DNA of 64,000 nucleotides from Tubulanus polymorphus (Eukaryota > Animalia > Nemertea), in assembly GCF_964204645.1 (NCBI RefSeq), contig NC_134028.1, positions 21,944,345 to 22,008,344 on the forward strand, read 5' to 3'. A program made the position numbers and the translations under genes. Below the pieces are notes generated by a model. It was given only the letters and a program-made list of their open reading frames with translations. It was not told where the DNA came from and ran no database searches. Positions 6,141 to 62,175 of this stretch are shown here, piece by piece. Within the stretch, counting starts at the first letter, position 1. Every line of letters starts with the position of its first letter.

Positions 6141-6189
6141 TGTCCGTTTCGACGTTAGAATATATTTATTTCATATTTCAGGTAGGGAA

Positions 6190-16752: not shown

Positions 16753-16800
16753 AATACTTCTGTTCTGGAAAAGAGGATTTCATCCGCATCTAAGCAGTGA

Positions 16801-24179: not shown

Positions 24180-26450
24180 ATGTTTGAGAAATGCTCAAAT
24201 TAGTCGTTCAGAGAGGCTTTACATTCACCTTGCTTTTCTTTTTTGAAAAATTTCCAAAAAGCCTTTGGGTCATTTTTTGACAAACCTTATCATTATGTAT
24301 GCGCACTTTGTTTTGTCTATGTTGTTTTATTGCAGAATTGTAGTTCTTGTAGGCTACTTTGATATCATTCGCGTTCACGACAGTCATATGGTTTCTTAAA
24401 CGTCATTTTGCATTACGGTAAATTCTGCGTTAAGACCTTACTCGTCTATCATAGGCTATAGTTTTATTACCCAAAGAGTTCTTTTTACACTGTTTCCTTC
24501 CCATAGAATTTTCAGCTGCGTTTAAAAGGATATTACTGAGGCGCGTATCTGCTGTGTCACTATCTATGTTATTATATAAAAAGTCAAATTTATTCTCTGT
24601 TAATTCCGTCGGTATCTAAAGCCTCTCTGAACGAATCTATTTTGTTATCGGTCCATACAATTTTACTCGACACGGTTGTTTCATCTTGCTCGTTAGAGTG
24701 TGTCGCATTTTCCTGCGCATTTCTTACTGAAAGATTACACAAAATAGGACAGTGAACGTCAGAAAAGAGTTGATCGAATTCCATCACCTCAAGATCTGTA
24801 CATTTACACAAAGAAAAAGACGACATTATAAAATAATCGACGACATGGAGATGGTTTACACCTTCTATACATGTGAATTCACCAATACACTTATCTCTCC
24901 CGACTCTTCCATTAGCAATAAAAATGTTATGGGATTTACAAAATTCTAAGAGTCTATATCCCAGTTATTAACATGTTCCTCTCTATTTCTTCGATACAGT
25001 AAATCTTTTGTCGACAAACTATCAATACTTTGTCTAACTGAGCTACAAGGCTGTGGGCATAGCTAAAGAAATCGGGTAATTGTTTCGTATGGGTATTGAA
25101 ATCGCCCCACAAGCAGTAATATGGATCGTTTCTACTTGTCACGTTTGTAAAAATCTAGGTCATCAAATAAATTAATATTCCCATAAGAACTTGATTCAGG
25201 AGGTATGCAGACGGCTCCTACATGTATTATCAAACTTCTGTCCCAATTAGTGAAACGCTTATCGATTTTAATCTGTTGAACGCAGCTCGATGATTTTTCT
25301 ATTACTTTAATATGACTGCTTAATTTTGTTTTGAAGGCAATAAATAACCCCCCCCAGATTTTCTAATAGCTATTTTGGACCGATTATTCATCGCAACTTC
25401 ATACTAGAGAATGGAAGTAATCTTTGACCCATAGGTAATCTGTATCGTCGAGTTATCGTTTCGAGGAAAACTAAAATATAATACTGACATAAAAGATCGA
25501 AGTCAAACGTATGTGCATTGGTTTTTAAGCCACATATATTCAAACATAATAGTCGAAGTTTCGCATCATTAGTTTTTGGCTCGTCGAATTCCTATGCCGG
25601 GATTTCTAGTAAAAGGCGCGTGTTCTCAATGACTTCGCTGACTGGCTTCATTGGGCTATCGTTAACCGTTAAGGTTGTATTTGACGATTCATTCACTGGG
25701 TTTGGGTTTAACGGTTTGTCAAGTTGGTCGTTTTTCGCGGACTTTCACTGGTCGTTTTTCGCGGACTTTCGCGCCATAGCTTAGTCGGATCACGCTTCTC
25801 GACTAGTTTTACCTCGCCCGCGATGATTTTATACACATCCCCATTATAAATAAGTTTATCGTATGAGACACGAACTCTCGCACCGGGTTCCCTCCTGTTT
25901 TATTGAAGTCTTCAATATAGTATTTTTCTATTATTCCTCATTTCGAATGGTAGATCTCCTGAGATTCCAACATTTTTTTCTTTTTCTTTAATTCTATATC
26001 GAGCCATTATAAACGAGCTGGCGATCATTATAATCGAGAAAACGTGCCACTATAGTGCGCGGACTTGATTTGGTGGGGTTTCTGTGAAACCTCTTTAACA
26101 CTATATTTTTCACTTTGTTATCCGGAATTTCACTAAGCAGTATTTTTCTGATTTTCTCCTCACAGTTTTCCCTCACGTTAACGGGTTCTGGGACACCGTG
26201 AAAAACCAAGTTATTTCGGCGCGATCAGGCCTCTTGATCAATCATTCGGTTTTCAAGGGCCTGTAATTTAACTAATTCCGCACTCGTCTACGTAGTTCGG
26301 TTGGGCAGATCTGTGTCTGATTTAGCAATTGACTGTACGATTTCGTTTATCTTTAACGTGAACTCATTACGTAGTTCATTTTTGACATTGTCAATTTTGA
26401 GATCAACTAAATGCTCAAAGTCGGCTTTACAAAAATTCAACTTGAAGACA
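24180..26450 (-). mobile_element. Decayed non-LTR retrotransposon retaining ORF1 and the APE endonuclease region
   Basis: ORF1 RRM-like (RRNNLVFHGVPE...ENCEEKIRKIL...RFHR..PRTIVARFLDY) at ~25990-26225. Endonuclease motifs WGDFN (~25100) and SDVHCPI (~24750). Many stops and frameshifts. Confidence 0.8.
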
Positions 26451-26497
26451 TAAACTGTCAACGTTAAAAAAAATTAAGTTTCTCGAAAAACAGGTGA

Positions 26498-29494: not shown

Positions 29495-30917
29495 TTTCGC
29501 ATATATCCCAACTAATATATCACAGTCGCTCGGAGGTAGTGACGCATCTGACAATCAGTAGAACGAGTGAACAAACGTTTCACCTATTCAACTACTTCAC
29601 GATATTAACCCTAGCACACCCATACCGTACGTCGAGTAACGGGTGAATAAGTATGGTTTAGAGTCCGCGCACAAAATTATTAACGAAGTTAACTAAAACG
29701 CTTAATCCGAATCCGAATTAGAAAATTAACCCAAGCTAAAACATGAGCCTTTGAAGCGAGTTAAGTATGACATAAAGAGGTTTTGACTGCATGTTTTTGT
29801 TAGCCAAACACCAGTGCTGGAGACATGCCGTACGTACATAACCCTAAAAATCTGCGTTAGGATACACGTGCTGGAGACTGCCGTACAACAACAACTGAAA
29901 GTATTATTATACAAACTACGAGGGTCTGATATAAATCACGTAGTCAGCCGGTGTAGTCTAGTCGAAAATACACATAGCTGCGAGACCTCTAGATCTAACG
30001 TATCAGTTGCCCCCATTATTGTATCAAGTACAAAATTCCAGGGCCGTCCAGGCTGGTGCGGCGACGGGTTCGAGCTCACCTACTCGCAAAATTCTTAGTT
30101 CCGCTTAATTCCCTGTCCTCGAAAATTTGCTTGATACTTTCCATGGATGTACTCTAATCTTTAAAGTTAGAGGTGTTGTGTTGTATATTTTGTCTTAGAC
30201 TTGATGCGGTTGGTATCCTCTAGATACAATTCCACGAGTAAGAGTTAACTCTGAGTTAAAATCAGTAAATTTTTGATGTTTTAACTCTAGTGTCTAATGT
30301 TGCTGAACTTGCTCTGCTAATAATTGATAGAGAATGATCATTATATGTAAGTGTCAGTTCTGATTATAAAAGTTATTCAGATTCTGCCGTATTCATGGAA
30401 GATATCACAAAAGAAAAATGGCCACAAGGCCCTCAGAATACGCCTCGGAGTACCTTGATGACGGTTGTGCCGTAATGACTCATATTTAGTTCCACTTTGC
30501 CGGAGTATCGCACCTACCCACATTAAGTGGCTGGCATAAAATACGGCCCTAGACGAACTCTCCAGTTTTGTCGATCAATGTGTCATTATCATTAGAGACA
30601 TAACTGAGGAATAATTGTAATATTCTAGTCATGATTTCTATTTTCAGCGTGACGATTGTTATGAGGCCGTCATTTACATACAAGACAATCAATACATACA
30701 TAATACGGCCCAAGTCGGATATAGCATAGTATAGTGCCTTGGCGTAGAGTTAACAAGTTGTGCGGTTAATGTATCAGCGCATCAATACATTGGCGCATGA
30801 ATACATTGCTAATTGGGTATAAATGCGCGGCAAAGGAACAGTTCATTTACACGTTGACCGACGACTAGTGGCAGTTGACAACTGTTGGTTGTTTGTTGGT
30901 TGGCCCAGTGGAGAGAT

Positions 30918-32690: not shown

Positions 32691-33915
32691 ATGTGTGGCC
32701 TAAAAGGCAAAGATGTATGCAACATTTTGGGAGCAATATTCGTACGAACGATTTTCATAATATTTGTTCTTATTGCAATTTGGCGAGTGGTCGAAGGTCG
32801 CGGGACACTTTTTTGGCTGTTGGCTTTGTCACTGGTTCCATTGATAGCCGAAGGAATCTATCGACTTATCAGATATAAAGGGACCGAAACTAATAGATGG
32901 TAATGTAGACTATAATATAACGTTTCAGTGTTGACTAAGACTTTTCATTCACTTAGAGTAATTGATTCGATGATTATTTGTTTTTAGGTTCAGCGTTTGT
33001 TTCTTTTTATTTCTCCTTCCGATCGTTGCCTGTATTTGGCTACTGCAGTTGAAGTATAACGAATGTATCCTCGACGCGATTCAGAACTCCACCCGTCAAA
33101 GCTATTGTAAACTTGAAACTTTTGAGATATCGTATAAGCAAATATTCGGGGTAAGATTTTAATTCGTGTTTCGTATTTGAGCGTATTTTTCAACTCTCCC
33201 AACTACGTGTACGTAATTTCCAAGCGCTGTGTTCATAGAAGAATTACCAATTCTTATAGATGTTTCTTTTTCAACGTGATATTTGTAGATCGCGGTTCCT
33301 ATACCTCAACTCTCTCAACTCAATTGGATTCTGAGTATTCAACAGGTTACCGTTATCATGCTCGCTATCGGTCGATGTTTGTTGCCGAATGATTTCAGTA
33401 ACCGCATTCTCCTGACTCAAATGCTACTGGGGCTCATCGCTAACGGCGCTGACGTCATCGAATTCTTCCAAATCCAAAACGATATGAAACTCAAGGGCGT
33501 TCGCGATCCGATTATTTTCGTTCACTTGGCCTTGTGGTCGTTCAGTATGCTGCCCTTCTGTTTCTCACTGAGTCTGCTTGTTCGACGAGAAGAGGACCCT
33601 GCGCCTAAACCGACGACCGACGAAAGTTCGGACGAGAAGGAGCAAACACGCAAGGAAGCGTTCAAGGACGTTCTATTCGCTGAACGCTGGTCAGTGATTC
33701 TAGACGTCACATGTATGGATGCGCCTTACCTAGCAGCGAGAATATACGTCATGATTGAGTATAACATATTCACGAGTACGCTGCTATTCTTCGCTGTTAA
33801 AAACGCCTTTAAGGTGGTTGGAGGAATCGCCTTGTTCTTTATGATGATGCCGTGCTGCAAAGGGAAAGCGGCGAGCAAAACATCGAAGGTGTCACCTGAT
33901 GATATTGAGGCCTAG
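32691..33915 (+). CDS. TMEM26-like membrane protein, copy 1 (exons 32691-32899, 32988-33150, 33289-33915; 332 aa)
   Basis: WFSVCFFLFL..IWLLQL, IGRCLLP, QMLLGLIANGADVIEF, LWSFSMLPF, DAPYLAAR, FFAVKN correspond to TMEM26-family motifs. Splice sites give 999 nt in frame. Confidence 0.85.
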
Positions 33916-35269: not shown

Positions 35270-37784
35270 ATGTGCGGACACAAATGCAAAGATGTATGTA
35301 GCATTTTGGGAGCGATATTCGTACGAACGATTATCACGTTTTTCATGCTAATTACGATTTGGCGAGTCACCGTGGGCTACGGAACGGTTTACTGGCTGTT
35401 GTCTTTGTCGCTGGTTCCGTTAGTTGCCGAAGGAATCTATCGACTCATCAGATATAAAGGAGCCGAAACTAATAGATGGTAATGTAGATTATAATATAAC
35501 GTTTCGGTGTTGACTAAGACTATTCATTCACCGTTATTAACTGATTCGGTGATGATTTGTTTTTAGGTTCTGCGTTTGTTTCTCGTTATTTCTCCTCCCG
35601 GTCGTTGTCTGTATTTGGCTACTGCAGTTGAAGTATAACGAATGTATCCTCGACGCGATTCAGAACTCCACCCGTCAAAGCCTTTGCGAAGGCGATACTA
35701 TCGCGATGTCACATGAGAGAATATTCGGGGTAAGAATGACGTTACTAAGTTTTTTCATTTTTCGTATTGATAACTGATGTTCATAAAGGATAAAGCTTGG
35801 CACCCATCATTCTTAGAGAGTAGGAACCTCGTTGAAGAAAAGTGAGGGTGCCATTTTTTTCATTGTTATCTAACTGCCATGACAACATACTTATTATCGT
35901 TCTATGGTGTCAAAAATGCATAATTGTGAAATTTTTCTATTTGGATGGTGCTCTGGGAATTATTGGATACATTTTCACTCTTTTTTAAATCTCGACTGGT
36001 ATTTTTATGCTGATTCTAATTATCAAGGTTAAAGAACTCAACTAGTAACATTTATTTACCCATAATATTTTCAGTCTTATCCCCCAAAAATGCCATATGT
36101 TTGGCACTTTTTATCAAGGCCTAACTTTTTTTCTATACTTGATACTATTTATGGAAAAAACTCACAATGTATATACCACAATGATTTCATAGGACCCAGG
36201 ATTCTTCTGTTACCATTATACATTTTTGACACCATAGAAGGGTAAGAAGCCTGTTGGCATGGCAACTAGAAAACAATGATATAAAATGGCACCCTCCCTT
36301 TTCTGAAACTTCGAGAATTCTATACTTTCTAAAAATAATGGGTGCCAAGCTTTATCCTTTTCTGCACACTCGGCTCAATAAGCTCTTGGACTAGTGTTTA
36401 TGAATGGTCAATGGTTCATCGTTAATAACGTTGATGGATAATCTATCAATATGAGTATGGGAGCGATGTTTCGTTGTACATATGCCAACATGTACTAAAT
36501 TATCGGGAGAACATTCCCAAGCCCGACAGAGGTGGATACCTCAGTTGTTGATATGAAAGAAATTCTTTATCAGCTTAGTCACTCGGCGTAAGAACATTTT
36601 TGACGCCGTAGAAACCGTTACAATAATGTTTATATAGATTGATACCTAGTATGCGTTATATGAGGGTTTCTATGTGAGTCGATGTGCACTACGTCATCAA
36701 TATTGGAGTTTCAATTTTTGATAAACGTTTAAAATCATTTTGAGAGGATGTGCGCTACGTCATCGATATATCGGGCTTTGACTGGTTGCCGGTCAATCGA
36801 TTCAATTTTCGAAATCTAAAAAATCTAAAATCAAATCTAAAATAACTTAATTGATGTTAATTTCATATAATCTATTTTACATTATTTATTATCGACAATA
36901 TAAAGCAACGTAAGTGTTCTTTTTTTCAAGTTAGTTTTCTTGTTTGCCTATCAGATCTCCATTATTACACTGATGTGTGTGTATGAAACCACGGTAGATA
37001 AATTTCAAGGAAGTGAAAGGAATAAGGAATCCAGAAATTTTACAATCGAGATCATCTTATGTTTTGTTATCCATTTGACATCACAGCTTTTGTCTATATT
37101 GAATTATTGATCGACACCATTTGTGATTCTAATTCTATGTATAATTTGTAGATACGCGTAGCAGTTCCTCAACTCTCTCAACTCAATTGGATTATGAGTA
37201 TTCAGCAGGTTATGGTTATCGTGCTCGGTGTCGGTCGATGTTTTTTGCCGTGCAATTACAGTGGTCGTGTCCGTTTGGCTCAAATGTTATTGGGGCTCAT
37301 CGCTAACGGCGCTGACGTCATCGAATTTTTTCAACTGCAACAAGATTTTGAAATCTCGGACGTACGCGATCTGGCCGCTTACGTTCACTTAGCCTTGTGG
37401 ACGTTCAGTATGCTGCCATTCTGTTTCTCACTGAGTCTAGTTGATGAACAAGACGCGGATCCCGTACTTGAATCGACGACCGACGAAAGTCTGGATGAGT
37501 CGATAAAGCCAAACACGATATTGTTCAAGGATATATTGATTTATCAACGCTGGGCAGTGATTCTAGATGCCGTATGTATGGATGGACCCTTCCTAGTGAT
37601 GAGGATATGTTTCATGATTTGGTACAAAATAACCACGAGTTCGCTGCTATTTTTCTCTGTGAAAAATGCCTTGAAGTTGGTCGGAGGAGTGGCCCTGTTT
37701 TTCATGATGCTGCCGCGCTGTTCCGGCCAAGGGAAAGCTGCAAGACGAGAAAGGAAAGTGTCGCCAGAAGATATTGAAATGTAG
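35270..37784 (+). CDS. TMEM26-like membrane protein, copy 2 (exons 35270-35478, 35567-35729, 37152-37784; 334 aa)
   Basis: Tandem paralog of copy 1 with the same intron positions; MDGPFLVMR, FFSVKN; 1005 nt in frame. Confidence 0.85.
35785..36360. mobile_element. MITE with long imperfect TIRs in TMEM26-like copy 2, intron 2
   Basis: AAAGGATAAAGCTTGGCACCCAT...GAGGGTGCCATTTT...TTCTATGGTGTCAAAAATG is mirrored at 36220-36360. It is absent from the short equivalent intron of copy 1. Confidence 0.8.
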
Positions 37785-38396
37785 TAATTATACGTGATTT
37801 ACATGTGAAGCATTCCTCCTTTACTAAATGCCTCTCTGAATCTAGTATTTAGGTCTAAATGGTCGTACATACTATAAACTAAACTCAATTAATTGATGAA
37901 AACAGTCAAACAAAATATAATTAGCTGAGAAAATTAGAAACTTAAGATTCGGTCGGGTTTTAGTGGTATTCATGGATATCTACGATTTGGAAAACACTTT
38001 GCAAATTCTGATTCGAATAGATGTGAATTTAAACCCCGTCATTCATCTATGCACCATTCTGAAAAACCATGATAATCTCAACGAATATCAAATAGCTTCT
38101 AACACCTGCAAAAACAATTCGTCCACTTCACAAAACTACAATAGACAAAATGCTGGTGCTTAAAGGATTTCAGTATTTTCAGGTCGAGTCATTAAATCAG
38201 ATTTGATGTTCAAAAGCTGCTAGGATGATATGTATTCTGAGAGACGATACTTGGGTGAATAACAACAGTTCAATTGACACATGTTTAATGGGATGCTAGG
38301 TCTATAACAAACAACTGTTTTGTGTTAGGGGTTAAGTAATTTCTATACAGTATTTTGTCCGAGAGCTCCTCTATCAGAAAGGAATTAAGTCTGTCG

Positions 38397-38404
38397 TATA
38401 AAAA
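38397..38404 (+). promoter_or_regulatory. TATA box of peptide gene copy 1, followed by a non-coding exon (donor GTAAGT ~38477) and acceptor at 38821-38822
   Basis: TATAAAAA. The equivalent TATATAAA (minus strand, 58126-58133), donor and acceptor are conserved in the paralog. Confidence 0.55.
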
Positions 38405-38838
38405 CAGTTGAGAAAACCGGAAAATTTAACTCTCATCGAAAGCATTTTCGACTTGTTACAGAGTGAAAGATTCCGTAAGTAATGTTTTGCTTTGTAGTTT
38501 TTCTGTTATTTTCTTACTTGCTGCGGATGTGAAAGTGTAAGAATATTTATGTCAGCCAATGTAATAAAATGCTCCATGCACGTTCAGTATTCATTGATGA
38601 ACCGCTTGACCTTCTACCTAAATACATAAAATCGTAATTTTAGTTCTTTGCACCATTGGCAAAACTTTCTTGCAAATGGAAATGGTAATTCATCAATAGT
38701 AGTAGCTTAAACGTCCATTTAATTGGTCATCATTGACTAATTCACCCAGAGAGCTGATGTTGGAGTAAATATCATTCTCAAATATATTTCCTCAATAATA
38801 ATCTGTAATTCATTGATTACAGAAGAATCCCCGGTAAA

Positions 38839-39078
38839 ATGAAATTGTCGGCAGTTTTTGTATTGTGTGTTTTACTGGTGGTCGCCGTTACTGGTGATCA
38901 AATAGAACGAGCTCTTCGAGACGCTGAAAATGCTGGACACGACCCGCTGGAGTTGATGGAGGCCAGACGAACCGTTCAACTGATGAAACGAGGATGGTTC
39001 AAGAAAGTCTGGAGAAAAATCAAGGAACACTGTTCTATTGGTTACGACGGTGGCTTCAGAGCTCAATGCAGTGGTTAG
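38839..39078 (+). CDS. Secreted prepro-peptide, candidate antimicrobial/cytolytic peptide copy 1; predicted mature GWFKKVWRKIKEHCSIGYDGGFRAQCSG
   Basis: 19-aa signal, 32-aa acidic pro-region ending in KR, 28-aa cationic amphipathic mature peptide with C-x11-C. A conserved paralog lies at 57508-57747. Confidence 0.88.
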   Translation: MKLSAVFVLCVLLVVAVTGDQIERALRDAENAGHDPLELMEARRTVQLMKRGWFKKVWRKIKEHCSIGYDGGFRAQCSG

Positions 39079-40345
39079 AATCATTAAATGAACACATGAT
39101 ATACTTTCATGAATAGTAAATATAGTATATAGGTTTATTGAGTAAACGGTAATAATGTATTGAGTCTAATTTTTTTACCATTTCTGAGACACTGTCATTT
39201 GATTCCAAAAAGGTGGTTAGACACACGTTTTAATTATTATCCGTGTAATCGCATAGTTGCAGGGGTCATTATCTGGGGTTTTAGAAAATTTGGGACGTAG
39301 CAATAGATAATCAGGGCTCCGTAATCAACTGTGGCAATCGAGGACCAATCACCAGGCGAAATAGTGCGCGTTATGACATACTAACAGGATTTAATCTCAG
39401 AAAAACTTTGCAAAATACCTTTCCTTCTATAGACGAACGGACGACCGACGAAAAGTGAACGCAGAGAACAAATTCAATTAGTAATCCCCAACTGCAAATC
39501 TGCTAAAATAACATATTACCATGATTTTCATATTTATCATTTTGCGGTTTTCAATTTTCATTTTTAAGACGAATGCATACTACGTATGGTAAATATGTTA
39601 ATGCGATTAAGTATCAAATATTTTCTAATCACTGGATTATTGATACAATATGATTAAGATATCATTTGAAGATAAACTAAACCTTATTTACGTGACGTAA
39701 CACCGCATCTTGTCACTGCGTTTGACCACCAATACCTGGCGAAGTCGAAAAAACATATGGCTGCAAGACCACCACATGCTGAACGGAACTATTCTAGAAA
39801 AGCTCACACAAATACGCATTATATGTTATTAGAGTTTTATAGATAAAGTACGTACGAAAAAAACGAATAATTCCGATAAAACTTGATGGAAATAAATCAC
39901 TTAAGATTGGGTTAGTCTTTCTATTCTCAGATTTTATCACCCGACTGTTTGTATTTACAAGCTCATTGTTGCTTCAAACCAGCCCTTCGTCATAATGCCT
40001 ACTCAGGGTATCACCTATATCGAATCATTATTTATTGATGTTATCAATGGTTTGTAGGAAAATGAAATCCATTTATATCAATATCAAGATCACCCAGAAA
40101 TGGTTGGAGCACTCAACAATGGATGGAACATCCGGCAATTGATGGCACGGCGTCCCGGTGTCCAATTTAGAACGTAAAATCCGTAACCCAGCTGAATATT
40201 TCATCTTATCCAACCTTGTTATCAGACATTAATCAACATCTACACGCGAGTTTTATATTATCATGGATTCAAAGATTAGGACGATTTGGTTTTGTATATT
40301 TCACGATACTCATGAGTTACGAATATTCGTTTTGTTTTCGAATCA

Positions 40346-43300: not shown

Positions 43301-46300
43301 AATGGCCAGAATTTTAACTTAGGTTCCATCTCATTTTTATTTTACAATAACGATTGGTATAATTTTTTTCTATCGGCTAGATAACAATCACCCGTGCAGT
43401 GTTTTGTCGATTGTGTCGTTTTACCTTCTACGAGTAAGAAGAATCCGTTTTTATTCTTCTTCAGAATCTCGATGGCTTTTTTGGTCATTTCAGCAATAGA
43501 CGGTTCACCCGCTGTATCATTGAGCCTTTCACCTTCGTACTGCATATGACTGTATTCGAATAACCCTTGAATATCAAGTAAATGAAAAGTACATGTAAGT
43601 CCAAAAACCGTTATGGATGTGAAATCTTGGTTTCTACGAAAAATGAAGCAATCTTTTTTTCATTTACCTAAAACACGGTCAACATTTTTCGGGTTAATTT
43701 GATCGAATCCATTCTTATCGTGGACGTACGTGTGTCTTAGGTTGGCTTTCTTCTGGTTGGCTTTCCATTCCTGCATAACACCATTACAATAACGACTCGT
43801 ACAGTATTAAACAGTAATATATACGGGCAGAAAAATCGTGGGTCTTTCGTCGAATGCAACATTATTCACAAATATCAAATAATATTCGATTTACTAGGAA
43901 ACCCTTAGCATATGAACTACGCGGTTTTTGGTTCTGGCCACCCTGGATAAGCCCCCCCCCCCCTGGACAACGCACATGTGCTTGCTTCCGCGTAACTTCG
44001 CTCTATTGGTGGTGAAATACGAAAAGCAACTTATCCGATAGATATGGTGGCTGATAAGGGCCATAGCGTAAAATTCCTGGTATGTAAATGAGGGCGCCAG
44101 AACGCCAGAACGCCAAAACGAAAAAAAAACGTCCAATTTTCTCTAGAAGTTCGTTTTGGCGCGCCAAAACAAAGAAAATTCCGTTTTGGCACCCCCGCCA
44201 AAACGAACTTTCATTTTGGCGCCCCCGCCAAAACAACGAAAAACGTCCAATTTTCTCTGAAAGTTCGTTTTGGCGCACCAAAACGGAGAAAATTCCGTTT
44301 TGGCGACCCCGCCAAAACGAACTTTCATTTTGGCGCCCCCACCAAAACGAACTTTCGTTTTGGCGGCCACGCCAAAACAATGAAAAACGTCGAAATTTCT
44401 CTAAAAGTTCGTTTTGGCGCGCCAAAACGAAGAAAATTCCGTTTTGGCGCCCCCGCCAAAACAACGAAAAACGTCCAATTTTCTCTGAAAGTTCGTTTTG
44501 GCGCGCCAAAACAAAGAAAAGTTCGTTTTGGCGCGGTTATTTCCGTTTTGGCGCCCCCGCCAAAACAAGCATTCAACGACAATAAAATTATTTTTCAATT
44601 TGGCGCGTTGATCTTGTGTGTAATTTGCATAAATTTGCATATATGAAAATATTTTACGTATATATAGAATTATTTTACGTGGTTTAAAGTTCGTTTTGGC
44701 GGGGGCGCCAAAACAGAATATTCGTTGTTTTGGCGCGCCAAAACGAACTTTTAGAGAAATTTCGACGTTTTTCGTTGTTTTGCGGGGGCGCCAAAATGAA
44801 AGTTTGTTTTGGCGGGGGCGCCAAAACGGAATATTCGTTGTTTTGGTGCGCCAAAACGAACTTTTAGAGAAATTTCGACGTTTTTCGTTGTTTTGGCGGG
44901 GGCGCCAAAATGAAAGTTCGTTTTGGCGTGGGCGTCAAAACGGAATTTTCTCCGTTTTGGTGCGCCAAAACGAACTTTTAGAGAAATTTCGACGTTTTTC
45001 GTTGTTTTGGTGGGGGCGCCAAAACGGAATTTTCTTTGTTTTGGCGCGCCAAAACGAACTTTTGGACGAGAAAATTGGACGTTTTTTTTCGTTTTGGCGT
45101 TCTGGCATTTACATACCAGGAATTTTACGCTATGGCCCGTATCAGCCACCATAGATAGACCCTAGACTTTCGTAAATCCCTTCAATTCAGTAACATAGTT
45201 CAATCATAGCAAAAATATCCTTTTTGAGCGCCTTTATGCAAATATATGCAAATTTAACTCAGGGGCAAAGCGCCATATTGAAATTACCGCGCCAAAAGGG
45301 CAAAAAATCCGTGTTTAAAATTTTAAATCAACTTCGTACTTCCATTCTGGTGTCCTCATTTGCATATCAGGAATTTTACTTCATAGCCCGAATCAGTCAC
45401 CCTAAAGAACCCTCCGCGCTGTGCCACTCATGCATAACGGTGGCAATCATGCATAACAGAAGGGAATTCATACTAAAATTTTAGCATATTTTATTTCATT
45501 GCTTGTCTAAAAGTTGAAAAACAATAACTAATTGTTCCGAGATTTACGAGATCAGTTAACATGACCTATCTCGGAGTTCGAAGAATAACCTACTTAATAC
45601 GACTATATCATAGTATGTCTTTCTATTTTTTTCCGTAACGCAAACGCGCTATAGCTTTTTGCCTTTGTGCGTTTATTATTTGTTGAGATATAATATATAT
45701 GCGCAAACATACGAGCTTCGAATATAATTCAACCAACGTCGAAAACGAATCAGATTAAAAAAAAAAAAGACTGTCAACACTTTGTATTTATTCGTGATAT
45801 ATTTGCGTCATCGCGAAAGGTTAAAATACGTATATCAAAACAGAGGTAAAAAAAAAAAACTGTGATCACGTCGTGTGAATTACTGAATATAGTTCTCTGA
45901 GTTTCAGTTTCAGGCTTGTCCGTCAAAAATTCGGTACCACCTGAGGATGTCCTATTTTTCTTTGGTTCAAATCTTTGGAAATTGCAACAGGGTTTTATTT
46001 TTCAAAGTTTTCCTAGGGAGGGCCTCGACACCCCCCTTATGGCTTCTCGCCACTCGTGGATAGTATAATTATCGCGCTTTTCACCGGGTGCTTCCCCTCG
46101 GTCAGTATAAGCTCTGAATCCGCTTCTGATTGGTGCTCGTGAAATATTTGTATATCATTCTAATTGATGCGGGCCAGTTTTTGTTGATGTCACAGAACTA
46201 TTTCCTACCGTTACAAGGTTTCGACCATCTGTTCGTTTTCCTTTCTTGTTTGGATACTCCGGATCTGTGTCACTTTTCGTGTAAAAGTGGCAACGACCTC

Positions 46301-49697: not shown

Positions 49698-50690
49698 TCA
49701 GAATTTTCGTCCGAACAAACCTAATGTCAAACACCAAACTAAAGTTTGGAGAAATCCCCTCCGGATGAACGCGTAGATGAATAGATTAACGGATACATTG
49801 AACATCTCGAACATGAGAAACGCAAAGAAAAAATAGAAATAGTCAATCGAACCGTATTGTTTATTAGCGATAACTTCATACGTCCCTTCGAGAAAACTGA
49901 CGAAACATAAACTCACTACGACCAGCGCTATGTTGACTGTGTTTCGGTTTGTTTTCCCTTTAGATAAGTCCTTTCGCTTTAGGTTCGCCGCTAGGATCGT
50001 AAACACGACGTGAATATTCAACAGCATCGCCAACGAGAACGGCAACGTTTTCGTCAGGATCGAATCGACAGTGAAGAAAAAACCCCACAGAAACGACTGC
50101 CACACCGGGCCGTAGTCGGCGATCGTGAATTTCAGAACGACTCGATCGCGATCGCCGCAAGAAGCCGTTTCGATCATCTTAACGACGAAGTACTGCGGCA
50201 GCGTATGAACCCCGGCGAATAGAAACAGCGAGCACGTTACGAGTTTAGCTCTGTGAACGGTGCAATACCGTGGCGCCTTCAACGGGAATATAACCGCTAT
50301 GTAGCGATCTACGGTAACGGCTAAAGTGACCGATTGACTGGTGTATCTAGAGACCATTACGACGTAGTCTATCCCGGCGTATTTACGGGCGATTTCGCGC
50401 GACCAATCGCCGTCGACGTAACCGTACAGTTGTAGGTAGTAGTTCAGTTTCGACAAGGTGCTCGATAAGGACGCGATTCCGTCAGCGATGGCCAGAGCTC
50501 GCAAGTAGAATATACCGCTTCCGCGATGTCGCATCGCCGTAAACACGACGAAACTGAACAGATTACCAACAACTCCTATCACGCACATAGTCCCGTAGAT
50601 ACCGAACAAAACGGCCGTCAGCAAACTTCTGTCGTATTCGCTACAAATCCAATCCGTTCTCTCTGAATCATTCGCCAGTGAGAGATCCAT
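49698..50690 (-). CDS. Intronless rhodopsin-family GPCR (peptide-receptor-like clade)
   Basis: GVVGN (TM1), YLRALAIAD (TM2), TVDRYIAVIFPLKA (DRY), HTLPQYF (TM4), LPF (TM5), NVSVNLFIY (TM7). Start MDLSLANDS carries an N-glycosylation sequon. Confidence 0.9.
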   Translation of the reverse strand: MDLSLANDSERTDWICSEYDRSLLTAVLFGIYGTMCVIGVVGNLFSFVVFTAMRHRGSGIFYLRALAIADGIASLSSTLSKLNYYLQLYGYVDGDWSREIARKYAGIDYVVMVSRYTSQSVTLAVTVDRYIAVIFPLKAPRYCTVHRAKLVTCSLFLFAGVHTLPQYFVVKMIETASCGDRDRVVLKFTIADYGPVWQSFLWGFFFTVDSILTKTLPFSLAMLLNIHVVFTILAANLKRKDLSKGKTNRNTVNIALVVVSLCFVSFLEGTYEVIANKQYGSIDYFYFFFAFLMFEMFNVSVNLFIYAFIRRGFLQTLVWCLTLGLFGRKF

Positions 50691-51744
50691 ATTTGGCGGC
50701 ACGAACAACTCGTTTGTTTATCTTTTCAGAAACGTGTGGCGTGCTTGTCATGCGAATCTTAACCGAAGCGAAATTCGAGTCGTCTTATTCACATGGATTT
50801 TGCCATCAGCAAATGGTGTCAGGAAACCATCTTTTCACTTTTATATACATATGTGTATTAAGTTTCGCATAAGTCTATTATGAAATGGCGATTTTTACGT
50901 GCAACGTGTGTACGTTAACACGCGAGTGAATGTAAAATTATAGGTATATATATATTGTTGGATTGGGCGAAAATATCTGTTTGAAAGCATTTCGCTAAAG
51001 ATTCATAACAATAGTAATAACAAAGAGTAAAATCCGTTGGAATAAGGTTTCCTAAAATATGAGGTGTGAGGCGTTTGTTTCTATATACGTATGCGTGTGG
51101 GGCTATTCATTTAGAATTTCAAACATAACGCTATGAACGATGTAAAACTGTGGGGTTTAATTGGTACAGCTCGTGATATATTGTCGACGTCAGTATTAAT
51201 GAGTTTTACGATGCAGGAACTCTAATTATAGAAGGCATATCGTAGTTAACTCATCATTCCAAGTAGTAAGGGGGAGGGGAAAGCGTGTGTAATTTTACAA
51301 TAGATAAGAAAAGTTCTTTCGGATATTTCTTCAGGGGTATTGAACACAAAGTCGACTATTTATTTCAAATATTTAGCTGAAAAAAGAAATCGATATTAAT
51401 TTGAAACTTTTTTTTTCATCTGTATTCTGTTAGGTGGAAGCTGTATATTTCGAAATCACCGTTCAAGGCCGTATTTAGGTTAATTAAATGAATTCATTAT
51501 CGATTAACACCTTGAAGGCTGGTCTACAGTGCTTTCGTCGTTTCTTTTGAAGCGTATTCCTTGTGCCGCTTCCACCTGATTCCAATAACTGAAATCAAAA
51601 TCACACCCGTTCGTATATCTCTCCTCGGAATTTGTTAACGATGCGCATCAATGTGCATGGTGCATGCTACGAGCAATTGGAACCACGGGCAATTAGCGGT
51701 TTCTACTATACCTTAAGAAAAGAGTTAACAGTTGGTAGGAATTA

Positions 51745-52359: not shown

Positions 52360-54555
52360 TCAGTTCTCGCCGCGAATCGTGACGTCATTATTAACGCTGG
52401 AATTCGTGTTTAATAACGTTAAACGCGTGGACGCGCTGGCGTCCTTATTCGGCGATGATGTCGTACGAGACTCGGTCAGAAGACGCAACATGCGCGCTAC
52501 CTTAGCCCGACAAACGAACGCCACGAAAACCGCCAAACCTTGTAAACTGTTCAGTATTATGTATATGTACTGAATGACGATGTTTCTATGCAGCATCCAA
52601 ACGAAAGCAAATATCCAAGTTCCTCCGAGAACAACGGACAACTTCATGTATAAATACAAGTTAGTTTTGTCGGATTTGCGCACCATTTTCGCCGCTTTAG
52701 ATGCCGTATATATTCCACGGATTGTCAGGCTGTACATGCAACAGTTTACGAGTAAGAGTACGCTGACCGGGAGTATGAATAATATACCGACCGCTGAGCC
52801 GCTATTCATCCAACATAGTTTAGTTCCGTAACTCGGATTATAGGGGGCGGTATTTTTCGCGAATACGTCCAGGATCGCACCGACGACAACGACGCTTAGC
52901 GGTAAACTGAAAGCGTACGCGGCAAACTTCACGTATCTGCGTCGTTGCGACGCGGGATCGGGACGACTCACTAATTTCGTCGACCAAAACGTCGACGCCA
53001 AGTCGACGGCCAAGACGTTCATCCAAGTGAATACCGACAGAAACATGAAGTGTATTGCGACGGCGAGGGAGACACAGGCGTAGTGATTATCGGCTGCCGA
53101 TGGGCCGACGAGAAAAAACAACTGCCCGACTAATAAAGCCGCCGAAAGGCACATAACAGATTTCCCTGGGACGTTTCTTAATGTTGGTAGAACAGAGTAT
53201 ATTATGAGTAACAGGGTTAAACATACGATTGAAATTGATTGTCCAATCGTCGTTATGACGCCCGCGACGCCATCTAGCGACGGAAATATTTGTTCGGCGC
53301 TTGTAGCGTTCAGCACGCCCGTATCGTTCACGCAAACATCGATTGTACCATTGGTCGAAAATCTGTACTCATCCGCGGTGTAATTCGTCCCGAGTGACGT
53401 CACGATCAGAATCCCATCGCTTCGGAGTACGTATTCTCCTTTCTGGTAGGTTACTATTGCGCAACGCTCTTTCATCGAAACCATACCGCGTCCGCCGGAC
53501 ATGGCCGCAAATTCCGTCGAAGCCGTTTCGTCGAATTTGCAACGGCCATCTTGAAATTTGTATCCGATACCGCAGCGCACCTGGCGGCAAGTCCCGGTTA
53601 ACGAATCGTACACTTCGCTTCTGCTACAGATCAGCTTCGAGTCCTTGGTGGCGCTCGAAGTTCGTACGGACGCTTTACCGATGTTCAAATCGAATAAGAT
53701 AGTTAACGGGTATTGTCTACCAGCGAACACGCTTCTAAACCCAGCGTTATGAAAAGGACACGTGAGTTTAGTTTCATCGACTCCGTTACACAGCGCGCAA
53801 TACTTATTTCTATATGAAGTATTGGTGCCCATTTGGCTGACCATATTCGTAGTTCGTTCCTTACATCCGATGACGTTAGATTTGTTGGTTATATTTGAAC
53901 ATGTATTTACAATTTTACCGAAATAACACGACCTCACGTGATCGGTATCGATCGGACTCGTATATTCCCGCGTACAGAAATATCGATCGTCTCTGAGCGC
54001 GTTCAAGCCGTTGTTATTCAAGTCGATCGTTTCACTTTTCGATTGCGGTCGTTTCTCGCGACAGTTTACCCGCAACTTCCAGTACTTGAACGTCGCTTCG
54101 TGCCAGCACATTGCGCAATACATGTTGCGATAAGTCAAACCGGTCAGACTTCCACTAACGGGCCACCGTACATATTCATCCGGCGTATCGTATTTATCCT
54201 CGCATAGACTTTTTACGAAATAGTCCCGGTATTGGTCGGGACATGTTTTAACGAACCATGTATGTGTCGGGATGACTTTTTCCGCGTACCCAGAACACTG
54301 AAGATGGTTCTCGAATAGATCTCGAAGTGCCGGGGTAGATCTGCCGGTGTTTGCAGCGTCATAGCAACAGTCACCATGGATATAACACTGTCTGTCGCAG
54401 AAACACGTCTTCGTGCTGCCGAAAGGGCTGTTGACGTTTTCGGTGACGTGACACGATGAGGGCAAACAGTTATCCAACTGGGATTGGGTCTGAACTGTTT
54501 GTAGCAGAAGCAGTAATTCCACGCATATCCCGCATATCCAAACAATATTCGCCAT
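52360..54555 (-). CDS. Class B2/adhesion-like 7TM receptor with somatomedin-B-like domain and Cys-rich repeats; single coding exon
   Basis: Signal MANIVWICGICVELLLLLQTVQT; CFCDRQCYIHGDCCYD (SMB); YRNMYCAMC and YRNKYCALC; LRNVPGK, HFMFLSVFTWMNVLA, CWM, LGGTWIF, LNSLQG. Confidence 0.9.
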   Translation of the reverse strand: MANIVWICGICVELLLLLQTVQTQSQLDNCLPSSCHVTENVNSPFGSTKTCFCDRQCYIHGDCCYDAANTGRSTPALRDLFENHLQCSGYAEKVIPTHTWFVKTCPDQYRDYFVKSLCEDKYDTPDEYVRWPVSGSLTGLTYRNMYCAMCWHEATFKYWKLRVNCREKRPQSKSETIDLNNNGLNALRDDRYFCTREYTSPIDTDHVRSCYFGKIVNTCSNITNKSNVIGCKERTTNMVSQMGTNTSYRNKYCALCNGVDETKLTCPFHNAGFRSVFAGRQYPLTILFDLNIGKASVRTSSATKDSKLICSRSEVYDSLTGTCRQVRCGIGYKFQDGRCKFDETASTEFAAMSGGRGMVSMKERCAIVTYQKGEYVLRSDGILIVTSLGTNYTADEYRFSTNGTIDVCVNDTGVLNATSAEQIFPSLDGVAGVITTIGQSISIVCLTLLLIIYSVLPTLRNVPGKSVMCLSAALLVGQLFFLVGPSAADNHYACVSLAVAIHFMFLSVFTWMNVLAVDLASTFWSTKLVSRPDPASQRRRYVKFAAYAFSLPLSVVVVGAILDVFAKNTAPYNPSYGTKLCWMNSGSAVGILFILPVSVLLLVNCCMYSLTIRGIYTASKAAKMVRKSDKTNLYLYMKLSVVLGGTWIFAFVWMLHRNIVIQYIYIILNSLQGLAVFVAFVCRAKVARMLRLLTESRTTSSPNKDASASTRLTLLNTNSSVNNDVTIRGEN

Positions 54556-55265
54556 ACCGTACGGATGCCTGAAGGAAAAACATAAACGTAAATTTTCGAT
54601 ACTATCTATATACACTTTTAGTCACTGCCTGATAAAGACACTATAAACTAAAGTTCGGATATTTAATGAAAGCGATTTAACCTACATAGAACTATCTGTG
54701 ATCCGATAATATAACTTAGCTCTTTTCAATTTTAGATATCGTCTATGCGATCATAGATACCGTCAATCGAATGTAAGATATCGCGATGCTAGACGCTGCA
54801 TTTTTTACTCCCGGACCCAATTTTGGCAAACCCGTGTACGGTTTAAATTATGCCTTACTAATAATGAATGACATTTGTAATGAGCTAAACAATCAACATA
54901 GATTGCAATAGCAGTGAGACTTAAGACCCAGGGGAAATTCTGTTGAGCTGAGTAGTAATTTTAAAAACGATTATTAGAATTTTTTTTTGAAATTGCTATC
55001 TAGGTTAGAATTTTTGATTAAAAAAAAAAACAACCACACAATACTCTAAACCCCAATACACAAATATCGAGTGAAGTAAAAATACTTATGAGTAAGAACA
55101 CTTATATAGAAATTTAGACAATTGAAAAATGAAAGGAAACAACAAATTTATCTATTCCCATGCCTGAGAGAAGCAATTCAACTAGAGAGTGAATATTTCA
55201 GTGTTTTCGCCATTGGCTTAAGTATTAGTTATTTCTACTCATGATAGCGAGTTTGTAGTCACGTA

Positions 55266-56952: not shown

Positions 56953-57507
56953 CCTGAATCTTATTATCATGTTTTGTGTGGAGCTTAAGTCTAAAGATCC
57001 TTAGTTTTTTATTCATCGACTTTTAGCATTTGAATGCGGTAATTTCACTGTAGATATATTTTTTCCCATTTTTCACCATTTCACACCATATCGACCATAA
57101 TCAATTTATGTGATTCATTTTTCATGATTTACTATGTAGTGGACGTCATCTACCACATTCATGACGTATAGACATTTTCAACAATCCCGGAAAATCTCAT
57201 CGGTAACTCCGGTGACGACATGGACAGTGTCAATTACGTCATAAAAGAGATGAAAATTCGGTGTAAAAAGAAAATCCGATAGAAAAGTGCGAAAGAAACG
57301 ACGTCTGCGTATCGACCTGTCGACAGGTCCGCTTGTCGATTTATCCGGTGCGGCGGTCCGTCCATTGGAATTAAATGACAAGTGCCCGGACAGGGTAGAA
57401 ATTGAATTAAATAAACATATCACCGTTTACTTATTTTATTTACATAAACATACATGTATTCTTTCGTACACACATATGTATATATGTAATATATTTATTC
57501 TATTATT

Positions 57508-57747
57508 CTAACCACTGCATTTAGCTTTGAAGCCACGGTCGTAACCAAAAGAACAGTGTTTCTTCATTTTTTTCCAGATTTTCTTGAACCATCCTCGTTT
57601 CATCAGTTCAACGGTTCGTTTGGCCTCCATCAACTCCAGCGGGTCGTGTCCAGCATTTTCAGCGTCTCGAAGAGCTCGTTCTACTTGATCACCAGCAACG
57701 GCGACCACCAGTAAAACACACAACACAAAAACAGCCGACAATTTCAT
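57508..57747 (-). CDS. Secreted prepro-peptide, candidate antimicrobial/cytolytic peptide copy 2; predicted mature GWFKKIWKKMKKHCSFGYDRGFKAKCSG
   Basis: 79 aa, same architecture as 38839-39078 (67/79 identical by my count); the upstream region is also duplicated. Confidence 0.88.
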   Translation of the reverse strand: MKLSAVFVLCVLLVVAVAGDQVERALRDAENAGHDPLELMEAKRTVELMKRGWFKKIWKKMKKHCSFGYDRGFKAKCSG

Positions 57748-59727
57748 TTTACCGGGGATTCTTCTGTAATCAATGAATTACAGGTCATTAATAAGGAAGT
57801 ATATTTGAGGATGATATTTACACCAACATAAGCTCACTGAGTGCATTATAGTCATGGACATTTAAGCTACTTATAGGAATTGTATTCGGCAGAATGTTTT
57901 TACCAATGACGCTCAAAAAATTAGATATTTTCTTGGTAGAAGTTGATGAATCATTGAGATTGAATAATAGTATTATATATGTTTTATCTGAATGTTACAC
58001 TTTACTATTACTACTGTATAATCATACAGTAAAACAAAGAACATATCTCTACTTACCAAATTTTTCACTCAGTAACAAATCGAAATGCTTTCGATGAGAG
58101 ATAAATGTTTCGATTTTCATCTCTGTTTATATACAACAGCCTTAATTCCTTTCTGATAGAGGAGCTTTCGGACAAAATACCGCATAGAAGTAACAAAATC
58201 CCGAACTCAAAACAGTTGTTTGTTATAGACTTAGGATCCCATTAAACATGTGTCAATTAAACTGTTGCTATTCATCAAAGTATTGTCCCTCCGAATACAA
58301 GTCATCCTAGCAGCTGTTGAACATCAAATCTGATTTAATTACCCGAACTTGAATACTGAAATCCTTTAAGCGCTTAAGCGCTAGCGTTTCGTCTTTTGTA
58401 GTTTTGCGAAGTGAACAAATCGATTTTGCAGGTGTTAGAAGCGCATCGATATTCGTTGAGATTATCACGGTTTTTCAGAACGGCCTATAGATAACTGACG
58501 GGGCTTAGATTCACATTCATCTGAATTAGAATTTACAAAGTTTGTATGATTTCCCAAATGATCGTAGGTTTCTTAAAGTTTCTTCGATTTTCATTTAATT
58601 TCTTATCAGGTCTTTTTTTATACCATTTTCTATTCTTCTGTTTATATCATTCATTCTTTTGACTTCGACATTTGTAGACATGTCTCGCAAACGTTAACAT
58701 ATCTCATTTTTCATTAATGGTGATTTACAGTGGCAACTGCCGGATAAGGATCCAGTTAACATAAATAGCTCTTTCTGATAACGCGGAAGATCTGTGTATA
58801 TTTCATCAACATCACTTCTCTGATGTAAGTAGTGTTTGTTGTTGCCGACTATAAATCCCCGTGTACGGAACGGGATGAGAGTTTGTAGACCAACCGCTAA
58901 ATGTTATGTTACATATTACCGCAGTAATTGATTATATTTATTCAGCACACACGTCATAGCGAAACGGCGAGCAAATATTGTTCCTGTTACGATTCCATAA
59001 ACATGTTGAAATCATGGTTTATGACGACTGGTTAGATTATTTTGACGAAGTGACGTCTGTGGAAAGTCCCAACGGCGCTTCCGGGAAATTCTAAACAAAT
59101 TGAAATTGCTGCTGTTTGCATGTGACTTCCTATTAATCATTTCAGAACTAATTGACGACGCTGTGTAGGTTTTTTTAATCAGAATTGATGTTCATTAACT
59201 TGTTGGGAAATCAATATAATGCTAGAATTTAAAAATCCTCGGGAAAATTTCAGTTGTCTTGAAGAAATAAAAAATGAAGGATGTATTTTTCTATGTTGTT
59301 CGTACCATTGATGACACTGAACCGTATAAACCAATACTTTAATTGAAAGATGGTGACAATCTGCCGGGACGGGATCTTACACAAAAGTCGCGTGAATTAT
59401 AGAAATTTTCTTTTGACGCAATGAGAAAATTTCTTCCTTCGGGTTCATCGCAAAACGGTAGTGTAACCGAAACCATCGAGATGTAATCTTTCACAATCTG
59501 AAAATCCTCATTCGTATGATTTTAGTTAAAGATAAGGGATTGGTTTGCAAAGGGTGTAAGTTCAACATTTAGTTATTCACGCGACTGAGCATGAGTGACA
59601 AAATAGTTTCGGGATTATATTTATATCTGTCAGTCCACCTATTAGAATTAACCGTTTACTCAATTAACTTACAATATGCATACCACTTTTTTCCTTAAAT
59701 ATATGTACGTGTTGATTCTTTGACCTA

Positions 59728-59786
59728 AACCACTGCATAACGCTCTGAAGCCTCGGTTGTAACAAATAGAACAGTGTTTCTTGATT
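59728..59786 (-). pseudogene. Remnant of a third peptide-gene copy (IKKHCSICYNRGFRALCSG)
   Basis: Aligns with the 3' end of both peptide genes. Signal, pro-region and GWFKK are absent. The matching distal upstream block is at 61697-62175. Confidence 0.8.
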
Positions 59787-60239
59787 CCTGACGTGTACTA
59801 ATATTTCAGCATGGTTTTAATTAATATTTTCTTCTACTGCAGCTAAAACAATTTTCCACCAAAGAGCTTGCTCAGGACTCAGCAAAGCTCAAGTCCGCTC
59901 AACCAAAACTCTCTCCCAAGCTCCCCAAAGCTCTGCTAAGCTAACTCTCTTCTTCTCTATCACAAACTCGGTTTTAACTTTGCAAATTCTGGCCTATTCA
60001 TATCAATTCATCTTCCGGGTTGAGGATGATATTTAGATTGTGACCTTATTCGGTAACTTACATAATTGATAGCTGGATATTCTCGGTTGAGTGTTGGCCA
60101 ACAGAATGATTCATTGCTACGGAATTTTACAAACGATTTGATTCATAAATATGAAATTATTTCAACACGACCAGGATGAAAATTAATTTTCATATGTATT
60201 CAATATATATAGTAATGTGAAGATGACCGCATCGTTAGG

Positions 60240-61400
60240 CCTACACATATCAAAAATCCTCGAGAAGCTAGTTCATTCACGGTCTATCTAAGTTTCTTGA
60301 ATACAACAAATCCTGTCTCCGTATCAATTGGTCTTAGAAAGAATCTCTTTACTAGTGACCTGTATCATCAATGAAATGATCGAAAATTCGGATGAAAGAA
60401 TGACGTATTTTCCTTGACACTTTCACAAGTATTTGACATGGTGGAACACGACATTCTGTTATCCAAAATATATCATTACGGTATACGATGTACGCCTCTC
60501 CACTCGTTTTCAAGTCTTTCGTAAGAAAGGTCGCAAATTGTATTGTTCAACATTACTACATATACTTCATTGCCCGTATTCTGTGGGATTCCACAAGGTT
60601 CGATTCTTGGGCCACTATTATTCATCTCTTACATCATCTTCTGAATATTGTAATGTTTGCTGACGATACCGATGTTTTTGCACACAATAAGAACATTCAT
60701 ATTTTGAATACTTTGAATCAACGGTGAATTACTAAGTAAAATATTTGGTTCCAAGCAAATCTAATTTCTTTGAATCTGTCTAAACTCACTCCGTAGTATT
60801 TAGTAGGAGAAATAAACCATTCAATTATCTTTAGCATTAACAATGGTAGCCAAGTATCCGAAACGAAATTATTAGTTGTACACATTGATAACAAATCAAA
60901 TTGGAAATCTCTTATTTCAGATCTCAACAAAAATTGCTCGATTTTTCGGAAGTGTCAGCAAACAAGCTTATTTGTGTCAAAAATAACCCTTCTGAAATTA
61001 TATTATGCATATATCTCTTGTCATTTGTCATAAGTCTAATGGCAACATTGTGCGGTGCCTTCCTTTCTCCACTTGAAATATTGCAGAAAAATGCGATTCG
61101 TTTGATAAATAAACCACCTATCTCTTACGTTCTACCCCACTTTTTATATCATGTGAAATTCTTAAACTGATATTTGTAAATTTATCGTTTCTAATTTCAA
61201 TACCGTTATAACGATTATATGCTTCCCCCAAATCTTCACAGAATTTGTCTTCAACAACTTTCAACTAACTTACAGAACACGTGGCCTAAATCTAAAAAAG
61301 TCTAAAAATCCAAGGTGCTAGTATTTGGAATGAATTTCTCTTTCATCTTAAATCTGTACGTTCAATATCAATATCTAAAAGAAACATCATAGCTGCCTTT
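60240..61400 (+). mobile_element. Decayed LINE reverse transcriptase (CR1/L2-like)
   Basis: Frameshifted motifs KILEKLV, DMVEHDILLSK..HYGIR, CGIPQGSILGPLLF, MFADDT, WFQANL.SLN.SK, LQKNAIRLI. Confidence 0.85.
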
Positions 61401-61696
61401 CAATTTATCGAACATTCCATGTAATTCTACACTTGTATATCTTTTTATTTAATAAGGTACCTCGACAAATCATTTCTCTTTGAGTAAGAACCATCGTATA
61501 CATAACTTCTCATTTAACTATATAGATAAATAATGTATTCATGTTATCCTTGAATTTCGACCCGATTTATATACAATAGATAATACATTTCAACACAAAT
61601 TAAGTTTTATTCACACCCTGCACCAGGTTGGTAGGTTTTTTTCTATTAGAAACAAGTTTATGACAAATATGGATATAAAAAGGCAGGTAAGAAGAA

Positions 61697-62175
61697 GGTT
61701 AGAAGCTATTTGATATTCGTTGAGATTATCATAGTTTTTCAGAATAGTGTAGGTGAATGACGGGGCATAAATTCACATTGACCTAAATCAGAATCTGCAA
61801 AGTGTATTCTTTTCCAAGCTGTAGATAACTATGAATCTCACTAAAACAGAATCTTAAGTTCTTTTAAAAGTTTCTCTAACATTTTCATTTAATTTCTTGT
61901 CAGGTAATTTTTATGCCATTTCAGCCTTTCTTTTGTTTATACCATTCATCCTTTTGACTTCGACCTTTGTAGATATATCTGGCAAACATTAACATATCTC
62001 ATCTCATTATGGTGATTTACATTGGCAACTGCCGGATAAGGATGCAGTTAATGCAAATTATCCGTTATGATAACGCGGAATATCTTGTGTATATTTCATC
62101 AACATCACTTCTCGGATGTAAGTAGTGTTTGTTGCCGACCATAAATCCCAGTGTACGAAACGGGATGAGAGTTAC
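61697..62175 (-). repeat. Third copy of the peptide-gene distal upstream region
   Basis: Direct match to 58430-58885 and reverse-complement match to ~37940-38105. Confidence 0.8.

Follow-up and report, generated by a model that had tools for sequence, protein, structure and literature searches.

The window, the 64-kb stretch of DNA of the palaeonemertean ribbon worm Tubulanus polymorphus analyzed here, carries two 79-residue coding sequences in inverted orientation, which we call copy A and copy B, and the remnants of a third, copy C (Table 1). Both open frames predict a secreted precursor with a short cationic peptide at its C-terminal end. Among the neighbouring genes, three tandem monocarboxylate-transporter-like paralogs, with a large exon that is about 88% identical among them, occupy 16767-29501 on the reverse strand; a neighbouring transporter exon has 98% identity to the T. 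polymorphus protein XP_074648124.1. Two tandem TMEM26-like genes lie on the forward strand at 32691-33915 and 35270-37784, the second ending about 200 nt before the duplicated upstream region of copy A. Long single-frame ORFs at 6103-8670 (+), 52360-54621 (-), 12012-13184 (-) and 49698-50717 (-) appear by eye to be two adhesion-type and two rhodopsin-type GPCRs, and a NeuroD-like bHLH gene is located at 14036-14620 (-). An inverted, internally tandem-repeated element at 44043-45404 has the look of a palindromic minisatellite or a foldback-like element.

Table 1. Features of the peptide gene copies in the 64-kb window (positions are those of the window).
Feature	Position	Strand	Evidence or remark
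Copy A, upstream region and predicted first exon	37996-38474	+	TATAAAAA at 38397
Copy A, predicted 5' UTR intron, 348 nt, GT..AG	38475-38822	+	Homology with copy B
High-identity A-B island: intron end, UTR, whole CDS	38803-39081	+	Candidate gene-conversion tract
Copy A, CDS, 79 aa, mature part net +4	38839-39078	+	Homology to copy B; A-specific contig in run X1
Copy B, CDS, 79 aa	57747-57508	-	Open 79-codon frame
Copy B, predicted mature peptide	57511-57594	-	Amphipathic helix, then disulfide-closed hairpin (AF2)
Copy B, 5' UTR intron, 293 nt, GT..AG	57764-58056	-	Skipped in one X2 contig
Copy B, first exon and upstream region	58057-58883	-	TATA-like word at 58133
Copy C (broken), 3' remnant, codons 61-79 only	59651-59786	-	Self-blastn; extra Cys, shifted stop
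DNA replacing the middle of copy C	59790-61697	+	Decayed reverse-transcriptase-like stretch at about 60396-60635
Copy C (broken), upstream remnant	61698-62173	-	77% to 58434-58883

A self-blastn comparison of the window pairs 37996-39103 with 58541-57483 on opposite strands, at 79% identity over 1119 columns. This confirms the inverted duplication of about 1.1 kb, with copies about 19 kb apart, that had been reported in a preliminary description of this DNA; the ATG-to-ATG spacing is 18,908 nt. The codons of A and B differ at 14 of 80 positions, two of them synonymously (codons 5 and 8). Nonsynonymous differences number 4 in residues 1-51, the prepro region, and 8 in residues 52-79, the mature peptide, reproducing exactly the counts given earlier. 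Both Cys, both Trp, GYD and GF are common to A and B, as had also been stated, and GYD is variable in the wider family, in which C and D carry Asn70. The excess of A-B differences in the mature part is modest yet beyond chance when residues are compared (Fisher p = 0.021) or when nonsynonymous sites are used as weights (p = 0.039); counted in nucleotides, p is 0.09.

It is highly improbable that A and B result from misassembly or represent two haplotypes left uncollapsed. The copies lie in opposite orientation with unique genes between them, the homology is confined to 1.1 kb, and the flanks beyond it are unrelated. Toward its 5' end the intron can no longer be aligned, 89 of 183 columns being different between A and B, and 43 of 120 positions differ in the 3' flank. 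Each copy also has its own contigs in the public run X1: an A-specific contig of 1882 nt, without differences over 134 nt of A, and three B-specific contigs, of 4421 nt (no difference over the part compared), 349 nt (none) and 1358 nt (one). A second sample, X4, has the B flank and the A upstream flank. The haplotype reading draws some support from sequencing depth, which in X1 is 23-27 for the B-specific contigs and 46 for the A-specific one, but two alleles at one locus would be expected to have equal depth. The reading is largely refuted, and the view of A and B as true inverted paralogs stands on their orientation, the limit of homology, the intervening genes and the separate contigs. As an observation apart, the depth of the B contigs (57300-58700) in X1 is half that of A (38977-39110). 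Taken as a lead only, this depth, which is no copy number, suggests that B is hemizygous or that its second haplotype is very divergent. Hemizygosity has been described for defence genes of mussels.

Five public runs overlap 57400-58200, none recorded as RNA, and these were used as contigs only; contigs of four runs were compared with B, and of four runs with the A coding sequence. One X2 contig joins 57763 to 58057, omitting 293 nt with GT..AG ends. Because this joint is absent from the contigs of the other three runs compared with B, we infer that the X2 contig represents spliced RNA of B, which supports, for B, the 5' UTR intron that had been proposed from sequence features. A spliced contig of copy A was not seen in the public runs, which is no evidence that A is silent. 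The TATA-like words at 38397 (A) and 58133 (B) are candidate promoter elements. With 4 differences, the spliced B contig reaches 58700 or further, at least 640 nt from the donor of exon 1 and a long way upstream of B's TATA-like word. The stretch formerly labelled "distal upstream" is indeed part of the duplication, but the label is uncertain since the spliced contig runs past that word. Copy B has either a long first exon or a second, upstream start, and contigs cannot reveal where transcription starts. The 22 ATGs in 58887-58057 make this region unlikely to be an efficient leader. The upstream region of B is common to A up to 58541 and to C up to 58883; the spliced contig, judged by its length, ends at about 58887, and the B-C homology likewise ends there.

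Copy C was overlooked in the preliminary description. Its codons 61-79 are found at 59785-59729 (-), and the 1.9 kb of DNA that replaced its middle likely holds a LINE remnant, to judge from an RVT_1 match (E = 3e-5) that scored 24.2 bits, under the 29.6 cut-off, with stops read as X; single-frame Pfam scans of the insertion found no reverse transcriptase. C-like 3' ends occur in X1 and X4 contigs, the one in X4 with different upstream letters, and less damaged C-like copies may exist.

A further type, D, occurs in runs X1, X4 and X5. It has 15 differences from A in the coding sequence, a mature net charge of about +6, and an intron and 3' flank of its own, whose motifs are not found in the 64-kb window. 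The depth of D in X1, 170-190, is consistent with several near-identical copies elsewhere in the genome. One short X5 contig (record 15; 151 nt, depth 3), matched at window positions 38963-39006, encodes the end of the pro piece and the first five mature residues, followed in frame by an unrelated Trp-rich, Cys-free stretch. This contig may be a second tail type ("E") or a chimera; its tail motif has no match in the window with up to 3 mismatches.

The additional copies bear on the direction of the charge change. The predicted mature peptides of A and B carry net charges of +4 and +8, as had been estimated, but E>K and G>R are not supported as charge gains in B, since K63 and R71 are found in C and D as well as in B (K59 also occurs in D). 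It is rather A that likely lost charge at positions 63 and 71, because C and D agree there with B, and parsimony without an outgroup makes A likely the derived, less cationic copy. Changes private to B include I61M, I67F and Q76K. The last is not fixed: Gln is read at this position in 3 of 3 X4 contigs, one of which has the B flank, and in an X3 contig (depth 3.3).

Substitution events were counted by hand over A, B and D. The prepro region has 6 nonsynonymous and 5 synonymous events, and the mature region 13 and 1. The proportion of nonsynonymous differences (pN) is higher in the mature than in the prepro part (p = 0.005), and the contrast in the ratio of the two kinds of events is borderline (p = 0.056). 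Compared with neutrality, the mature ratio gives p = 0.28; a mature dN/dS exceeding 1 is suggestive, not significant. The pattern of a conserved prepro and a variable mature peptide, for which the preliminary description had argued, holds in terms of pN; accelerated evolution of the mature part does not follow from it, given the neutrality test and an A-B divergence of 8/87 nt (9%) in the mature part, below the 57/394 (14.5%) of the upstream flank. Likewise, mature pN (8/70) does not exceed the divergence of the flank (p = 0.61).

Synonymous A-B differences in the coding sequence are fewer (2/53) than upstream differences (57/394; p = 0.03). When the UTR and the intron end are added the count is 2/90 (p = 0.0005), with borders that were picked after seeing the data and with the splice-acceptor region, itself constrained, included. 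Synonymous divergence between A and D (5/53) is not different from upstream divergence between B and D (51/~415), so that the A-B island is not accounted for by general synonymous constraint and more likely stems from conversion between the inverted copies. Upstream, A groups with C over B (12/102 vs 19/104), a difference that is not significant (p = 0.24).

The reading of the mature-part excess depends on the extent of the conversion tract. If the tract covered the whole coding sequence, the excess of pN in the mature part points to diversifying selection; if it lay mainly over the prepro part, relaxed drift suffices. We lean, without great conviction, toward a tract over the whole coding sequence. 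A and B share derived mature states relative to C and D (codon 70 and the third base of codon 71), and A-B identity continues through the stop codon and then drops abruptly. In addition, the comparison with D repeats the pattern, with a single synonymous change in the mature part beside many nonsynonymous ones, and mature pN is about five times the divergence of the near-neutral sites of the island (2/90; p = 0.022). These observations argue against a history without positive selection, in which conversion acted chiefly on the prepro part, making it uniform, while the mature part drifted under relaxed constraint. Such a history nevertheless has an appreciable, if minority, chance of being correct: A-B divergence in the mature part is at or under the flank level, the 0/14 synonymous differences there have p = 0.11 at the flank rate, and the longest identical A-B runs (63, 50, 29 and 27 nt) all finish by 39006.

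Read from the sequence, the copy B precursor comprises a predicted signal peptide (residues 1-19), a pro piece (20-51) that ends in KR, and a mature peptide (52-79), so that a signal, a pro piece and a dibasic site ahead of a short mature peptide are all present. The 32-residue pro piece is weakly acidic (7-8 D/E vs 6 K/R). In mature B the Cys65-Cys77 pair, at mature positions 14 and 26, encloses a loop of 13 residues (C-X11-C), and the last residue is Gly, a likely amide donor. Gly-derived C-terminal amidation is an established form of peptide processing. Removal of a C-terminal Gly leaves the amide, according to a 2023 review of marine invertebrate antimicrobial peptides (PMC10608444).

The helical hydrophobic moment, 0.61-0.67, was matched by 2.5-3% of 5000 shuffled sequences. 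Both AF2 models place a helix over mature residues 1-13, followed by a hairpin closed by the two Cys; these models, run on two-row alignments, are of low confidence (pLDDT 66-71, pTM 0.26-0.44). With the 30-residue low-confidence model of the mature part, Foldseek returned no match at E <= 0.001 and the VIA fold search gave a best Z of 2.1, so the fold searches indicate neither a new nor a different fold.

A full-length homolog was not found in any protein, profile, structure-sequence or metagenome search. A word-indexed search (lengths 43-139) gave 2 candidates, none at E <= 1, and PDB sequences gave 0 matches. Pfam returned only sub-threshold Conotoxin and DUF5363 rows, the former (PF02950) over the prepro part at E 0.03-0.06 and 15.7 bits against a 25.1 cut-off, and no FSAP (PF03032) row appeared at E <= 1 for the precursor. 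The best Atlas row for the precursor is a frog-skin precursor cluster (0.76), a lead only, and there is none for the mature part. Both precursors are absent, by exact look-up, from a collection of 15 billion proteins, and annotation therefore appears to have overlooked them. A metagenome match (L001) that shared only the seed and the hydrophobic start, with no Cys pair, was judged to be due to chance.

A profile search of 1.84 billion proteins yielded only three matches at E <= 0.001 (1e-4 to 4e-4), all of them uncharacterised KR-GW(F/L)xK precursors, from Aplysia (P0090), Bulinus (P0091) and Panagrolaimus (P0089). Like copies A and B they have a signal-like start, a spacer, a KR site and a similar cationic helix; unlike A and B they contain two peptide repeats per precursor and no Cys loop. 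From sequence, kinship and convergence are indistinguishable as sources of this resemblance. In their own right, the three proteins, with unannotated tandem KR-flanked cationic helical peptides, look like undescribed antimicrobial peptide families. The Aplysia gene model joins the relevant part (residues ~330-503) to a glycosyltransferase, and the protein has a Styelin match that falls under the threshold.

Cathelicidins are defined by their cathelin pro-domain, and the 79-aa precursor has no cathelicidin Pfam match. Nine of 11 N-terminal residues of the hagfish cathelicidin HFIAP-3, which has a cationic amphipathic start, are identical to copy A; HFIAP-3 as tabulated, however, is without Cys (PMC11762488), the precursor of the copies has no cathelin match, and the likeness is probably convergent. 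The first five residues of the centrocin 1 heavy chain are those of copy A (PMC3561256). The centrocins of sea urchins have, as here, a prepro region of about 50 residues that is kept while the mature chains vary, but they are heterodimeric, with a light chain and an interchain of 24 residues (PMC4805251), whereas the present peptide is one chain with an intrachain disulfide after the KR site. The stop after residue 79 and the presence of both Cys in one chain rule out a light chain of the centrocin type.

The closest parallels in layout are the polychaete peptide nicomicin and the frog Rana-box peptides, which combine an amphipathic N-terminal helix with a C-terminal disulfide loop (PMC6265681), and mesco-2, with a helix and a C-terminal disulfide loop in a membrane-active layout (PMC13149500). 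Membrane damage has been demonstrated for nicomicin (PMC6265681). The loops of these peptides comprise 5-7 residues (6-7 in the Rana-box), against 13 in the predicted hairpin here, and nicomicin is made from a 239-aa precursor with a BRICHOS domain (PMC6265681), against 79 aa here with no BRICHOS match in Pfam. An evolutionary parallel is provided by Mytilus CRP-I, with a conserved prepro, a hypervariable mature peptide, clustered paralogs and pseudogenes; these are six-Cys knottins (PMC4558851, PMC10138031), and no sequence relation is claimed. The copies fall outside each of the named families, while they likely work like them. A passing likeness of the B loop to the natriuretic-peptide ring was set aside, since neither A nor D has the residues concerned.

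The copies show the features of the cationic amphipathic helical class, a positive charge and an amphipathic helix, and likely belong to an apparently undescribed host-defence peptide family. The interpretation that we favour, and consider probable, is that these multi-copy ribbon-worm paralogs encode a secreted cationic peptide that would be antimicrobial through permeabilisation of anionic membranes, and that they evolved by birth and death, conversion and probable diversifying selection. The signal would be cleaved after residue 19 and a convertase would cut after K50-R51; removal of Gly79 would then give an amidated cationic peptide of 27 residues. The N-terminal amphipathic, Trp/Lys-rich helix is predicted to form on, bind and enter anionic membranes, and the Cys65-Cys77 hairpin may tune stability, assembly or selectivity. 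Permeabilisation of the membrane would kill the microbes. Birth and death would account for the family, copy C having presumably been disrupted by the LINE-like insertion. Gene conversion between the inverted copies would have homogenised the A and B coding sequences, with later changes mainly in the mature part and probably under diversifying selection.

In a toxic worm, cationic helices can just as well act against predators or prey. Nemerteans secrete cytolytic and neurotoxic peptides (PMC6410017), their toxin genes duplicate and show positive selection (PMC10674772), and frog skin antimicrobial peptides can serve as toxin-delivery agents (PMC5686178); the weak Conotoxin match over the prepro points the same way. 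The main competing role, that of a cytolysin of mucus or proboscis or of a helper that permeabilises membranes for toxin delivery, would be directed primarily at predators or prey and less at microbes; it is unlikely but deserves consideration, and it is compatible with an antimicrobial explanation. The classes of nemertean peptide toxin that a review names comprise neurotoxins, of about 3 and 6 kDa, and cytolytic peptides, of 8-10 kDa (PMC6410017). The copies, by contrast, have only two Cys and no Pfam match over the cut-off, and they lack the multi-disulfide mature framework of conotoxins and of the cystine-knot nemertides. Their nearest N-terminal look-alikes are antibacterial peptides.

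Prohormones carry the same processing signals as these precursors. The signal, KR site, single disulfide and C-terminal amide could therefore also be those of a neuropeptide or hormone precursor acting on a receptor, which we regard as very unlikely. The high charge, the amphipathic helix, the many copies and the greater variability of the mature part relative to the prepro run counter to what neuropeptides usually show, and the natriuretic-like residues of B are not kept in A or D. The word GWFK has 0 occurrences in the main text of a nemertean neuropeptidomics paper (PMC8557429).

A broader version of the antimicrobial interpretation is rather improbable in its entirety. The copies would represent the first alpha-helical host-defence family of ribbon worms, with a prepro and helix-start cassette kept uniform by conversion between the inverted copies, exchangeable C-terminal tails (the disulfide hairpin here, a very different one in the weak X5 contig), presence variation between haplotypes, and an old spiralian KR-GW origin that includes gastropods.

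A description of the peptide family was not found in the literature covered, a scope that leaves out most subscription journals and supplements such as transcript lists of T. polymorphus, and within this scope the antimicrobial peptides of nemerteans are nearly a blank. The string "nemert" has 0 occurrences in the main text of the 2023 review cited above (PMC10608444), and an Amphiporus screen reports no match to known antimicrobial peptides (PMC7460313). Peptides with fewer than four Cys were left out of a Cephalothrix study (PMC12846013), a filter by which a two-Cys peptide would be dropped. Perhaps not surprisingly for a specialist, a conserved prepro, a variable mature part and pseudogenes form a well-known pattern; the evolution of the copies is ordinary birth and death, and it is the helix-plus-hairpin layout that is somewhat unusual. 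The natural series of 27-residue helix-plus-hairpin peptides, A at +4, D at about +6 and B at +8, offers a route to the study of defence at the mucus surface of nemerteans.
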